Positions 20,246 to 44,565 are shown, numbered from the stretch's first letter. The stretch is 64,000 bases of DNA from Nitrosopumilus sp. (GCA_965197525.1 OZ240211.1:704001-768000), one strand, 5' to 3'. Made by a program: numbers and translations. The notes: generated by a model not told the origin, from the sequence alone.

Positions 20246-20347
20246 TGTTAAAAAATTAGCATTATGATTTAATATATGTAGTTTTTGGAGGTTCTGTGTA
20301 ATCTTCGGGTGTTTTTTATGTTATTCATACCAAAACTAAACATTGTT

Positions 20348-21547
20348 TCAACAACGTCCTTGATGATTACTTGACTTTGACATATCGACTATTCGGATTA
20401 CCGGTGTACAGGGTTCCGACATCGTTGACTCAAAAGTATCAAACTTCGCTTCATTTATGCCATCTCTACTATCCCTAAACCTAGGGGACAGTTTGCGTGA
20501 TATATTCATGGCAGCGATAATATCCCTATTCATGTATAATCCGCAATTATTACACAACATTTTACGACTGTGTTGCATGTCCTCTTGGAGTTTCTTTCCG
20601 CATCTTGGACATTGCGTGCTTGTGCGTTTTGGGTCTACAAATTCAACTGGAGGTAGCCCGACCCACTGGGCTTTGTATTCTATCTGTCTTTGCAGTTCAA
20701 AGAATTGCCATCCGTTCAATCTACGTCTGTATTTGTTACCTTGACCGTTCCCCTTCCTGTATAGTTTTCTAATTCCTTTCAGGTTTTCTAGAACAATAAC
20801 TGCTTTTTCTTTGACCGCATTATCCACAATATCTTTGGATATTTTGTGGATGTATTGTTTTGTTCTGTTGGTCATTCTTTTCTGTCTCTCTTTCCAAAAC
20901 TGATCTTTCTTTCTGCGATCATTTCTGCGAAATCCGGATCTAGCATGTATTGTGTTCTCTTTGATTGAGAGCAGTTTGTTTGTCTTGTAGAATGTTACTT
21001 TTGTTTCATTTCCACAAGTTACATTTCGAAGGTTTCTGTCTACTCCCACTGTCTTGGTACACTCTATTTGTTCTGTTTCTTTGGAAACACAGAGACTGAT
21101 GTTGATGGCAGTCAATGAAAATGAGCGTACTGTCAAGGTATGATCAGCTAGGATTTTTTGTGTGTGTTGGTTTAACAGGATGTTGATAGAATTTCTACTC
21201 TTGTATGGAATTGTCAACAATGCACCATTGTGTTTTACTCCATAACAGTTTGTGATAAATGGTTTTTTTATCGTTGGATACTTTACTTTGATGCCACGTT
21301 TCACGGATTGTTTTCTGTTAGCTAGTATACCTGCAGCCCTTGATATTGCATTGAGTTTGTATGATGATAAAATATCATAGTTTCTCAACTCGTGATAACA
21401 CAGTATAGACAATCGCTTCATGTTATGGGTATCTTCTTTTAACCCTATCTTGATACAGCAGTTAACCATCTCTGTGAATGTGGCCATCATACCCATGAGG
21501 TCTGAATTCGGTGTATATTTTTGTGCTATTGACTTTATCGCCCTCAA
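20348..21547 (-). CDS. tnpB: TnpB RNA-guided endonuclease (IS605/IS1341 type), intact RuvC
   Basis: RuvC-I VGVDRNLRN, RuvC-II VLENLKGI, Zn finger CPRCG...CNNCG and RuvC-III NRDIIAAMNI. Confidence 0.93.
   Translation of the reverse strand: MRAIKSIAQKYTPNSDLMGMMATFTEMVNCCIKIGLKEDTHNMKRLSILCYHELRNYDILSSYKLNAISRAAGILANRKQSVKRGIKVKYPTIKKPFITNCYGVKHNGALLTIPYKSRNSINILLNQHTQKILADHTLTVRSFSLTAINISLCVSKETEQIECTKTVGVDRNLRNVTCGNETKVTFYKTNKLLSIKENTIHARSGFRRNDRRKKDQFWKERQKRMTNRTKQYIHKISKDIVDNAVKEKAVIVLENLKGIRKLYRKGNGQGNKYRRRLNGWQFFELQRQIEYKAQWVGLPPVEFVDPKRTSTQCPRCGKKLQEDMQHSRKMLCNNCGLYMNRDIIAAMNISRKLSPRFRDSRDGINEAKFDTFESTMSEPCTPVIRIVDMSKSSNHQGRC
20349..20500 (-). ncRNA. omegaRNA of tnpB copy 1; scaffold ends at 20369, predicted guide aatcatcaaggacgttgttg (20368 to 20349)
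   Basis: Conserved with two other copies up to ...gtcaaagtcaagt and unrelated immediately after; compensatory stem changes. The 5' boundary is approximate. Confidence 0.7.
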
Positions 21548-21779
21548 AGACCATATTACGATTCAAGGATATTTAAGTGTAGATATACTGAGTTAATAGC
21601 ACCCGAAGATTACACAGAACCTTTTTGGACATGATTACATTTTGTGGGATCCCGAAAGTAGTTTGCCCCTCTTCAAAACTTGGAGATGTTTGTGCGTATG
21701 ATGTTCTAGAGTGATGTATAACTGTCTTGTGTTAGACTCTGCTGTACAATTTATGAATTGATTCGTTTTCATTCCACGC

Positions 21780-22100
21780 ATGGCATCTATTCAAAAAATT
21801 ATGTATAGTTACATCTCTACAGATGATCTTACGACGCTCTCCAAGGCAACAGCTCCTCGAATCTCGTTTGCTATTGCTGAGAGAATTACAGAATGTTCTA
21901 GTCGTTCAGGAGCACTTTTTTTGGATCTTCCTATGGGGCAGGACATATACTATCTTGTCTGCATCTTTGTATTTCTTGTGCAGTTTTTGAGTTCATCTGA
22001 CCGAGACGTTCATCTTTGCTGCAATCTCTTTGTTACTGGCAGTGTTCTTGTGCTTTTCTTTGATAATCCATTCCGCGTTGGATGAGTCAAATTTTTTCAT
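21780..22100 (-). pseudogene. Decayed N-terminal part of an IS481-like transposase
   Basis: Hand translation MKKFDSSNAEWIIKEKHKNTASNKEIAAKMNVSVR*TQKLHKKY...RLEHSVILSAI...GAVALE resembles, from memory, thaumarchaeal IS481-type HTH starts. Internal stops and frameshifts. Confidence 0.5.
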
Positions 22101-22581
22101 TACTCGTACTCTCCGTCTCCCCATACAACACCACATAGTAGAACAGTTCTACCTGCGGATCCACACACCACCACTGTTTCCAGTAATGGACAAGTTGACT
22201 GTGTCTTTCATAGATTTTACATTGGATTCCATACAGCTGAAAAAATCGGTCATGTAATACACTTCCACCTAGACCATGAGCATGATGTGAGGAGTGAACT
22301 ACTTTCAGGACAATACATTTTTGTACAAAATACTCTATTGCAAGCAACATATGCAGGAACCAGATTCCTAAGATAGCCAGTACTGCCCTTTGGCTTGGGT
22401 TTGCTGTGATTAATTTCCACGCACCACGATATCCAAGCTTGTCGTAGTTGTTAAAAATAAGTTACAAATACTTATGAAGATGAAAAAAGTTTGATCAAAT
22501 CTATGAAAACGCAAAAAAAAATCAAAATTGTACTGTAGTGATAGCAAAGGTAATAAACACCAAAAAGAGATAATATTCTAA

Positions 22582-42585: not shown

Positions 42586-42768
42586 TTAACGTACCCTTTC
42601 TTTGTTCCAATACGGAGACTTGCATTTCTTGTTGTTGCAGTTTTTAGGGGATTCATTCCTACTGTACCAAATCTCATTACACCTGTTGCACTCGTGTCGC
42701 CAATATGCACCATCAACTTTCATGCTCATACACTCTATACCAATTAGTAGTATATAATTTATTCCCAT
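42586..42768 (-). CDS. Small zinc-finger passenger protein
   Basis: HECNRCNEIW...PKNCNNKKCKSPYWN; divergent from the transposase. Confidence 0.6.
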   Translation of the reverse strand: MGINYILLIGIECMSMKVDGAYWRHECNRCNEIWYSRNESPKNCNNKKCKSPYWNKERVR

Positions 42769-42962
42769 ATCTACTTAAAACCCATACTAATATATATGGG
42801 TAATAGGTATAGTATAAATCAAGTAAAAGTGATTGGCGATGATGAAGCCGTGACAATCATATCTGAGGAAAGCAGAGATGATGTTAAATTACCTACAAGG
42901 TATCTGAGCCAATCACTTTCTTTCCTACTTGGTTCTATATTAATTTTCGAGGGGTCTTACAC

Positions 42963-44099
42963 ATGAACGCAAGAGCACAAAGAGCAAGACAGATTATGGA
43001 GATGGATAACCACGCATCCCAAATCGTAGGCGAGAACAAATACAAGGTTAGATCACAAACCATCCCAGACAAGTATTACATCATAACCAAAACTGATGAT
43101 GGATTGGTATGTGATTGTCCAGACCACATCAAAAGACAATCTGACTGCAAACATATCAAAGTGGTATTAGAATATTGCAAGAAGAATGTCTTTGACCATG
43201 ACGGATTTAGAATCATGGAAAGGGCACAGCTCAAATTATGCAAGTACTGCGATTCTGGTAATGTTGTAAAGAGAGGGATTAGAAAAACCAAGAAAGGACA
43301 AAATCAATTATTCAAATGCACAGATTGCAAAAGAACATTTACAGCCAACTTTGGGTTTGAGAAGAAACAGTTTGACGAGAATGTTATAACTGGAGCTTTG
43401 CAGATGTACTACTCGGGAATGTCGGTAAGGGATATTTCAAATCATTATGAGATGATGGGAACTGAGGTTAGTTTCAAGACTATCTACAACTGGATTGATA
43501 GATATTCCAAGATGGCATCTAACTATCTAAACGAAATAACTCCACGTGTAGGGGACTGGCTCAGGGCTGACGAGGTATGGGTAAAGATTGCAGGAAATCA
43601 AAATTATGTTTTTTTAAGTATGGATGATGATACAAGGTATTGGTTAGCTAGTGATATAGCAGACAACAAGTTCCAACACAACGCAGACAATTTACTACAC
43701 CTAACCAAAACACAAGCTGGCAAAACCCCCAAGCACTTCATTACAGACAAGTTACCAGCTTATATGAAATCATCCAAAAAGATATTTGGCAAAAAGACAC
43801 ACCACACTGCAAATGCAGGAATCAGAAGCAAGAGAACGGGTCAGAATTTCCACCCCTCAAATAACAAGATGGAACGCCTGAATGGCGAGATCAGGGATCG
43901 TGAGAAAGTGTTCAGAGGACTCAAAAAGATGGATACTCCTGTATTGGATGGTATGCGTGTATACTACAACTACACAGAGAAACACGGTGCACTCGAAGGA
44001 CAAACTCCAGCAGAATCAGCCAAGATTACAGTAGATGGTAAAAACAAGTGGAAGACTATCATACAGAATGCGAGTTTGTATAAGAATAATTCAGTCTGA
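42963..44099 (+). CDS. IS6-family DDE transposase with N-terminal SWIM finger and Zn ribbon
   Basis: CDCPDH...CKH (SWIM), CKYC...CTDC, and LRADEVWVK, FITDKLPAY, NNKMERLNG (D-D-E). Confidence 0.92.
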   Translation: MNARAQRARQIMEMDNHASQIVGENKYKVRSQTIPDKYYIITKTDDGLVCDCPDHIKRQSDCKHIKVVLEYCKKNVFDHDGFRIMERAQLKLCKYCDSGNVVKRGIRKTKKGQNQLFKCTDCKRTFTANFGFEKKQFDENVITGALQMYYSGMSVRDISNHYEMMGTEVSFKTIYNWIDRYSKMASNYLNEITPRVGDWLRADEVWVKIAGNQNYVFLSMDDDTRYWLASDIADNKFQHNADNLLHLTKTQAGKTPKHFITDKLPAYMKSSKKIFGKKTHHTANAGIRSKRTGQNFHPSNNKMERLNGEIRDREKVFRGLKKMDTPVLDGMRVYYNYTEKHGALEGQTPAESAKITVDGKNKWKTIIQNASLYKNNSV

Positions 44100-44345
44100 T
44101 TATTTTTGGTTTTGAATGTCTTTTTTGATTTCTGTCATATCATCTTGCAGTTTGTTGAGTTTTTGACAGTTAATTTGAGTTTGTTCTTTCAGTGCTTTAA
44201 TATCCTTCTTGACATCAGTTCTTAATCCTTTAATATCCTTCTTGACATCAGTTCTTAGTTTTTTAAACTCATCATGAAGGCTGTCCTGTTTTTTGTCAGA
44301 TTTCTTAATTGCACGTAATACATCAACTATGGTTTTATCAGTCAT
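44100..44345 (-). CDS. Small coiled-coil passenger protein with an 11-aa tandem repeat
   Basis: LRTDVKKDIKG/LRTDVKKDIKA; convergent with the transposase, stop codons abut. Confidence 0.55.
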   Translation of the reverse strand: MTDKTIVDVLRAIKKSDKKQDSLHDEFKKLRTDVKKDIKGLRTDVKKDIKALKEQTQINCQKLNKLQDDMTEIKKDIQNQK

Positions 44346-44565
44346 ATCAACATGATATTGTATATCAGATATTAAACCTATCTTTAGTCTAATGATTCAG
44401 CCTACGACTTTATTCATTCCATATCACGAAGATTACACAGAACCCTATTGTGTTGCTCTGTCAGATAACCCTGACTAAAATTTCCTAAAACCGCGGTTGT
44501 GTAAACAAAATTTGAATTACAGAACATGAAATGGGGTGGCTGCTTATGATCGTAGTGTGCTTGAA

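Follow-up and report, generated by a model that had tools for sequence, protein, structure and literature searches.

The stretch analysed here, hereafter the window, comprises 64,000 nucleotides of Nitrosopumilus sp. (GCA_965197525.1 OZ240211.1:704001-768000), a sponge-associated ammonia-oxidising archaeon, and is part of a complete 2.21-Mb chromosome (genome 99% complete). Two intact tnpB genes, members of the family of RNA-guided nucleases, are each the sole gene between perfect terminal inverted repeats (TIRs), flanked by perfect 8-bp target-site duplications (TSDs), and a third element with ends of the same type encodes an IS6-like DDE transposase (Table 1). We refer to the two tnpB-only elements as element 1 and element 2, and to the third as the autonomous element.

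The elements in the window

The TIR lengths (22 and 25 bp), the 8-bp TSDs and the coordinates given for the two tnpB elements in an earlier inspection of the DNA by itself (the sequence-only reading) proved exact to the base, as did the leaders of 74 nt (element 1) and 72 nt (element 2). The distance from the tnpB stop codon to the right TIR is 0-60 nt. The 18-nt tip GGTTCTGTGTAATCTTCG, over which that reading had found the TIRs of element 1 and the autonomous element to be identical, has exactly four occurrences in the window, one at each end of these two elements, against a chance expectation of 0.04 (none of 100 shuffles reaches four). We note that a 487-bp member of the same group lies inside the range covered by the sequence-only reading and was missed there; this derivative has no TSD, with a TTA triplet at 32076-32078, 8 nt before its left TIR.

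Table 1. Transposon features of the window, in order of position
Feature	Position	Strand	Details
TSD copy TTTTTGGA, guide side of element 1	20282-20289		first 8 nt of the predicted guide, minus-strand reading
Element 1, tnpB-only IS6-type element, subfamily A, 1332 bp	20290-21621	-	22-bp perfect TIRs
TIRs of element 1	20290-20311 / 21600-21621		22 bp, perfect
Predicted omega-RNA scaffold of element 1	20290-20492	-	hairpin, long-range helix, terminal stem with right TIR
tnpB of element 1	20348-21547	-	399 aa; RuvC D/E/D and zinc finger intact
TSD copy TTTTTGGA, tnpB-upstream side of element 1	21622-21629
Triplet of element 1 resembling a transposon-adjacent motif (TAM)	21630-21632	-	ATG: T at -2, G at -1 relative to TSD
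Deletion derivative resembling a miniature inverted-repeat transposable element (MITE), 487 bp	32087-32573	+	29-bp perfect TIRs; retains only the tnpB 3' / omega-RNA region
TAM-like triplet TTG of element 2	34444-34446	+	abuts left TSD copy on its 5' side
Left TSD copy CTATCGGT of element 2	34447-34454
Element 2, tnpB-only IS6-type element, subfamily B, 1288 bp	34455-35742	+	25-bp perfect TIRs
tnpB of element 2	34527-35720	+	397 aa; stop codon within right TIR
Predicted omega-RNA scaffold of element 2	35582-35742	+	hairpin 35582-35588/35600-35606; long-range helix 35612-35618/35693-35699
Right TSD copy CTATCGGT of element 2	35743-35750		first 8 nt of the predicted guide
TSD CTATTGTG of autonomous element	42467-42474 and 44445-44452		perfect 8 bp
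Autonomous IS6-like element, 1970 bp	42475-44444	+	29-bp perfect TIRs
Small Cys-rich open reading frame (ORF), 60 aa, in autonomous element	42586-42768	-
IS6-like DDE transposase, 378 aa	42963-44099	+	CxC..CxH N-terminal motif, zinc ribbon, helix-turn-helix, DDE_Tnp_IS240 domain
Lys-rich ORF with internal repeats, 81 aa, in autonomous element	44100-44345	-

TnpB and transposase proteins

Both tnpB products pass the NCBIfam model guided_TnpB (NF040570) with 125.8 and 123.5 bits (cut-off 100) and contain the Pfam domain Cas12f1-like_TNB. The catalytic residues D170, E254 and D342 (RuvC-I, -II and -III) and the CxxC..CxxC zinc finger are kept in both proteins, these residues and the four cysteines being invariant, and the catalytic residues are intact in nearly all copies of the genome. 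In addition, two TnpBs only about 31% identical to those of the window lie elsewhere between GGTTCTGT TIRs with perfect 8-bp TSDs, in L044 (G021) at 1374-2624 and L035 (G028) at 1007-2457.

The transposase of the autonomous element passes Pfam PF13610 (DDE_Tnp_IS240) with 42.1 bits (cut-off 27). The DDE half of its earlier description as a SWIM-DDE enzyme stands; of the SWIM half there is a CxC..CxH motif at residues 50-64 and no Pfam SWIM match. Its best NCBIfam model is IS6, aligned from position 1 to 199 of 202 with 102.8 bits, below the equivalog cut-off of 125, and an IS1/IS1595-type zinc ribbon at residues 93-128 scores slightly below its own cut-off. By its sequence the enzyme is better termed IS6-like than IS6. 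The TIRs of the autonomous element (GGTTCTGTG...) carry the GG tip and the cTGTt motif of the IS6 family (PMC7986276), and the 8-bp TSD of that family is seen at this element and likewise in its relatives. Together with the IS240-type DDE domain and the presence of MITEs, these are the likenesses to IS6/IS26. Unlike the classical members, which are compact (700-890 bp with a single ORF), the autonomous element is 1970 bp long, contains two extra small ORFs, and encodes a transposase of 378 aa that bears a Cys/His extension at its N-terminus.

Two further traces of such elements lie nearby. At 23167-23475 (minus strand), between elements 1 and 2, the decayed piece of an IS6-like transposase, interrupted by stops and with 44% identity over residues 274-374, is found close to a solitary GGTTCTGT-type end at 24230-24237; the pair is what is left of a further IS6-like element. 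At C1:699962-703151, about 850 bp ahead of the first base of the window, a 3.19-kb element with 40-bp perfect TIRs (GGTTCTGTTAAC...) and no TSD holds a 43%-identical IS6-like transposase and about 2 kb of other DNA, and is possibly a cargo-carrying or composite IS6-like element.

Copies in the genome and in relatives

The search of the genome and its relatives that the sequence-only reading had proposed returned 51 related loci in this genome, 43 of them with paired GGTTCTGT TIRs. Perfect 8-bp TSDs flank 25 copies, and two more match at 7 of 8 positions. Thirty-three copies are full-length, with an open frame of at least 390 aa in 31, and some 18 further copies are fragments or MITE-like derivatives. 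The ten short TIR-bounded derivatives, the 487-bp element of the window among them, all retain the tnpB 3' / RNA region. The TIRs fall into subfamilies that follow the divergence of the element bodies (TIR versus body identity, r = 0.83). Subfamily A comprises four copies including element 1, and is the only one that shares the TIR of the autonomous element beyond the 8-nt tip. Subfamily B comprises 16 copies, 98-100% alike and including element 2, and is the most recently active; its TIR has the GGTTCTGT tip in common with the autonomous element and matches it at only four of the next eight bases. The earlier claim of a matching IS6 transposase in the window is thus correct for element 1 and its subfamily, and does not extend to element 2. 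The IS6-like transposase family has 12 matches in the genome: one is complete (that of the window), a second is 89% identical but without one of its ends, a third is broken, and there are several paralogues with identities of 29-43%. Paralogues of the transposase lie at genome positions 584864, 700017 and 922604.

The absence of tnpA, noted earlier for the window, holds for the whole 2.21-Mb genome, in which neither PF01797 (Y1) nor PF00239 (serine recombinase) has a match; control genomes gave matches. Without a Y1 or serine TnpA in the genome, IS200/IS605 or IS607 chemistry cannot be moving elements here. The other traits of IS200/IS605 and IS607 elements, the lack of TIRs and of a TSD, are not those of the tnpB elements either, which have both.

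The same architecture is present in metagenome-assembled genomes (MAGs) of Nitrososphaerota, Bathyarchaeia and Asgard archaea. Within the genus, all three other genomes that match the tnpB query also match the transposase query (one only partially), and the transposase is present in 10 of 24 genomes. The metagenome scan used an alignment as query; a single element 2 protein as query gave no matches.

An empty allele of element 2

Public sponge metagenome contigs were compared with the element 2 locus. A contig of run X3 (DNA; flank about 99% identical) joins position 34446 to 35743, the eight letters common to both sides forming one CTATCGGT, and a 24-kb contig of run X6 (flank about 91% identical) joins 34432 to 35743, again with a single CTATCGGT. 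The check for empty sites that the sequence-only reading had set out, namely whether the 8-mer pre-exists twice, thus gives one copy and not two. Element 2 is absent from a closely related sample, in which the empty allele has one TSD copy, and the mobility of the tnpB elements is recent.

Together with the 43 TIR-paired copies, the 25 perfect TSDs and the lack of any Y1 or serine TnpA, the empty site supports the view that these are non-autonomous IS6-type TIR/TSD elements with tnpB as their sole gene and a matching IS6-like transposase in trans. This was also the proposal of the sequence-only reading, in which mobilisation in trans was, as it is here, inferred.

A one-sided motif next to the duplicated target

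The target sites of the 25 perfect-TSD insertions were reconstructed and oriented by tnpB. In the triplet 5' of the TSD, on the tnpB-upstream side, position -3 is T in 19 of 25, position -2 is T in 25 of 25, and position -1 is A or G in 25 of 25 (T-T-R, with R for purine); there is no mirror motif at the opposite side of these insertions. The dinucleotide T[AG] has a background frequency of 0.146. Short derivatives that consist of the RNA region and have no tnpB follow the T[AG] rule too, and the dinucleotide is kept in 13 of the 18 TSD-less copies. The rule also holds for 16 of 16 TSD-bearing elements of other GTDB genomes (Nitrosopumilus, Nitrosotenuis, other Nitrososphaerota, Bathyarchaeia and one Asgard MAG) and for 11 of 11 elements in JGI metagenome contigs; the overall count is 54 of 54.

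Of the 18 sides of autonomous IS6-like elements with TSDs (one here, one broken and seven in relatives), 4 carry the dinucleotide, a chance-level frequency, and no TTR adjoins the TSD of the autonomous element of the window in either orientation. It follows that the motif travels with the TnpB/RNA module and not with the transposase. Further upstream of the tnpB elements, A predominates at -8 to -6 (14-15 of 25), and positions -12 and -10 are A or T. The TSDs and flanks of different copies, compared with one another, show no similarity.

A predicted omega-RNA closed by the right TIR

A consensus structure was calculated with RNAalifold from 29 right ends of three phyla. It consists of a hairpin, whose loop reads RGGUUY, and a long-range helix, with compensatory double changes in 12 of 13 pairs. 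Between this conserved core and the TIR is a spacer of variable length, about 10 to 85 nt. In all 29 right ends a terminal stem is predicted, its 5' strand following the long-range helix and its 3' strand being the inner half of the right TIR, such that the spacer forms the loop and the final six bases, AGAACC, stay free. In element 2 the predicted stem takes in TIR positions of about 6-18 from the tip, with the last 6 nt unpaired. The two strands covary with the TIR subtype (GUAAUC/GAUUAC, GUUACCU/AGGUAAC, GAUAACU/AGUUAUC), and the duplex of 5' strand and TIR has a mean energy of -7.1 kcal/mol for own pairs versus -4.1 kcal/mol for cross pairs, which none of 2000 permutations reaches; relatedness inflates this test, and the pattern spans phyla.

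The variability of the spacer initially spoke against a flank-derived guide, but with the TIR-closed stem in 29 of 29 the spacer becomes a loop. For the same reason an internal guide within the spacer was rejected as the principal interpretation. The scaffold is predicted to end at the transposon boundary, like that of canonical TnpB, in which case the guide would be the TSD and the right flank. A search of Rfam over 20200-36000, at E values up to 1, returned neither a known omega-RNA nor any other family of relevance.

Logan contigs from two sponge metatranscriptome runs, which cannot rank parts of the gene or give ends, were also inspected. In run X1 the depth is 0-10 over most of tnpB, 67-155 at 35380-35703, and about 2.5 beyond the element. 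These depths were not counted as evidence for the omega-RNA or its 3' end, since short derivatives raise the DNA copy number of the 3' part. A 695-nt contig of the same run (record 7) covers the last 70 nt of the element (35675-35745), beyond which more than 600 nt belong to a different flank; it represents another copy in that sample, and is compatible with read-through of the right TIR as well as with DNA carry-over.

A proposed role for TnpB, and its alternatives

We consider it probable that the tnpB elements are non-autonomous members of an archaeal lineage of IS6-like DDE transposons whose cargo is a complete OMEGA module (for obligate mobile element-guided activity), tnpB plus omega-RNA, moved in trans, and that a guide made of TSD and flank directs the cutting of empty alleles. 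The IS6-like transposase, supplied in trans, would cut and join the element ends. Transcription through the right TIR would then yield an omega-RNA with the TSD and the adjacent right flank as guide, and the loaded TnpB would recognise the unoccupied allele, in which the TAM (TTR), a single TSD copy and the right flank are contiguous. The occupied locus would escape self-cutting by virtue of its sequence, because its left junction matches for 8 nt before the TIR begins and ACC, not TTR, stands in front of its right junction. Cut empty alleles would be repaired from the occupied copy, either as homing or as retention or restoration after loss. Such homing or retention would enrich for insertions in which the TAM is correctly placed and oriented, which would explain the one-sided TTR of every surviving insertion as well as the invariable presence of the RNA region in short derivatives.

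For the question of what DDE-moved transposons gain from RNA-guided nucleases, this genome provides an unusually clean natural data set, with a complete chromosome, many datable insertions, a matching transposase, empty alleles and RNA-only derivatives. The geometry of the insertions and the stem built from the TIR predict a TTR TAM, a guide beginning with the TSD, and self-avoidance via the ACC tip, by which homing and TAM-directed insertion become simple to tell apart experimentally. Compact archaeal TnpBs whose predicted TAM is short and permissive are a further asset of this family.

Several findings weigh against the proposal. Only 4 of the 33 full-length copies have the subterminal TIR of the sole complete autonomous element, and subfamily B, the most active, is without a matched transposase partner in the genome. 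The transposase is below the IS6 equivalog cut-off and atypically long. If it is strictly replicative (IS26-like), it would leave no empty donor site, and only homing into naive alleles would be sensible, not restorative homing. Eighteen of the 43 TIR-paired copies are without a TSD; inspection of these showed no reciprocal exchange of flanks as a sign of inversion or recombination, and adjacent deletions are a possible cause. The two elements with about 31%-identical TnpBs have TAT and TTT as upstream triplets, not TTR; it seems that IS6-type ends of one kind serve more than one TnpB lineage, whose TAMs perhaps differ. Lastly, a motif present in 54 of 54 cases, among them a very recent polymorphic insertion, requires strong and fast selection if it is purely selective.

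TnpB or its ribonucleoprotein could instead act at the insertion step, TAM binding marking or distorting the adjacent 8 bp and so setting the site and orientation for the IS6-like transposase, which would amount to a forerunner of CRISPR-associated transposition that depends on a guide weakly or not at all; in either wording we judge this unlikely. The motif is universal, directly abuts the region of the staggered cut, is oriented relative to tnpB, is present at an insertion that is still polymorphic in the population, is absent from the tnpB-less autonomous elements and is obeyed by the RNA-only derivatives, all of which such a role would account for. However, selection after random landing can give the same pattern, guide-directed targeting is not seen among the mutually dissimilar TSDs and flanks of the copies, nothing points to TnpB and the transposase touching each other, and the recruitment of a DDE transposase by TnpB has no known precedent. 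The comparison with type V-K CRISPR-associated transposons (Cas12k with Tn7-like machinery), in which a TnpB-derived protein is tied to DDE transposition, is relevant to this TAM-directed insertion alone. Those systems insert 60-66 bp downstream of the PAM (protospacer-adjacent motif) in a guide-dependent manner, with a nuclease-dead Cas12k and the adaptors TniQ and TnsC, whereas here the nuclease is intact, adaptors are absent and the insertion abuts the motif. If insertion is indeed TAM-directed, the elements would be a natural partnership of a nuclease-active TnpB with DDE targeting that extends over Nitrososphaerota, Bathyarchaeia and Asgard archaea, and might be a step so far missing on the way from OMEGA elements to CRISPR-associated transposons.

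It is very improbable that T-T-R and the A-rich stretch at -8 to -6 are no TAM at all, reflecting instead the transposase's own preference for certain targets or a promoter-like context (resembling a B recognition element, BRE, and a TATA box) for tnpB expression. The A-rich positions (14-15 of 25) and the A or T at -12/-10 would suit a promoter, but the TSD is not notably AT-rich and hence not TATA-box-like, and RNA-only derivatives without tnpB follow the rule all the same. As for a transposase preference, the dinucleotide is present at 4 of the 18 sides of autonomous IS6-like elements with clean TSDs, close to the background of 0.146, and DDE target preferences are normally two-fold symmetric, whereas the mirror motif is absent. 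We give hardly any credence to the notion that these are ordinary IS200/IS605-type (IS1341-group) tnpB elements which came by chance to lie in or near IS6 MITEs or ends, with TIRs irrelevant to their movement. TnpB and its RNA are indeed typical of the OMEGA family, but the TIRs stand at a fixed distance from tnpB in 43 copies here and dozens elsewhere with the 8-bp TSDs immediately outside, the empty site has exactly one TSD copy, Y1 and serine TnpA are both absent from the genome, and the last stem of the RNA is built from the TIR and covaries with it.

Relation to known systems

The premise of the sequence-only reading that canonical TnpB travels with Y1 or serine transposases is outdated. 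Six DDE-associated TnpB branches (DDE-1 to DDE-6) with inverted terminal repeats were published in 2023 (Altae-Tran et al., PMC10691335), the main text of which also describes solo TnpBs with the ends of transposase-bearing elements, presumably mobilised in trans. A 2026 review (PMC13565253) gives ISL2, IS630 and IS1031 as partners, discusses the rarity of DDE associations, and holds that restorative homing should matter little for DDE transposons. The review of the IS6 family (Varani et al. 2021, PMC7986276) contains one member with a passenger gene (ISDsp3) and no TnpB. In the full-text literature we found no IS6-type partner of TnpB, no TAM separated from the element by a TSD and no omega-RNA stem embedded in a TIR, the supplement of PMC10691335 being outside this search. 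The novelty claimed earlier was therefore overstated as regards DDE-associated TnpB, a known concept; only the IS6 partner and its details appear to be undescribed.

The features by which the main text of PMC10691335 defines DDE-associated TnpBs are found here, tnpB lying within inverted terminal repeats common to a DDE element (subfamily A, 18 nt) with its 3' end within 250 bp of the element's end. As described there for DDE-1 to DDE-6, tnpB is located between the repeats of a DDE transposon, and solo elements with the same ends suggest mobilisation in trans. The partner here is IS6-like (PF13610, GGTTCTGT tips, 8-bp TSD), a type not named in the main texts, and may overlap with one of the six branches. 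In contrast to these branches, no copy here has a transposase in cis, and the one-sided TAM-like motif by the TSD and the omega-RNA stem embedded in the TIR are not described in the main text.

Fanzor proteins (in Mariner, MuDR, hAT, Sola2 and other TIR transposons; Bao & Jurka 2013, PMC3627910) likewise place a TnpB-family nuclease in a DDE transposon with TIRs and a TSD, with a TAM related to the target site or the side of the TSD. The elements described here differ in being archaeal, in having the catalytic spacing of TnpB and not the RuvC-II rearrangement of Fanzor, and in that the TSD is not sequence-specific and the predicted TAM is outside the TSD rather than within it. With the solo tnpB elements of the IS1341 group of IS200/IS605 (ISDra2; SisTnpB1, PMC10640517) they share the nuclease family, an omega-RNA overlapping the tnpB 3' end, a predicted guide that starts at the element boundary, a T-rich TAM (here a predicted one) 5' of the target (TTTAA/TTTAT in Sulfolobus), and standalone omega-RNA derivatives. 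Those elements have neither TIRs nor a TSD, move via single-stranded DNA by Y1 TnpA, and have the TAM directly against the left end, whereas here the ends are IS6-type TIRs and the predicted TAM is separated from the left end by 8 bp of duplicated target.

Other features of the window

The right end of the autonomous element is directly adjoined by a gene for a Fic/DOC family protein (Fic_N and Fic domains; 44566-45771, minus strand). At 26381-27622 (minus strand), a 413-aa protein of TnpB-like size is not TnpB; it matches the full profile of DUF7482 (E 5e-97). A giant ORF of 4559 aa (46824-60503, minus strand) contains about 16 repeats of at least 300 nt, spaced alternately by 627 and about 948 nt, and probably encodes a surface or adhesin-like symbiont protein. 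Tandem Repeats Finder reported no repeats over 50000-64000, where the period exceeds 500. The GGTTCTGT matches at 52750-62795 were ruled out as transposon ends, being part of the giant repetitive gene. A second repetitive ORF follows it, within 61564-63999.

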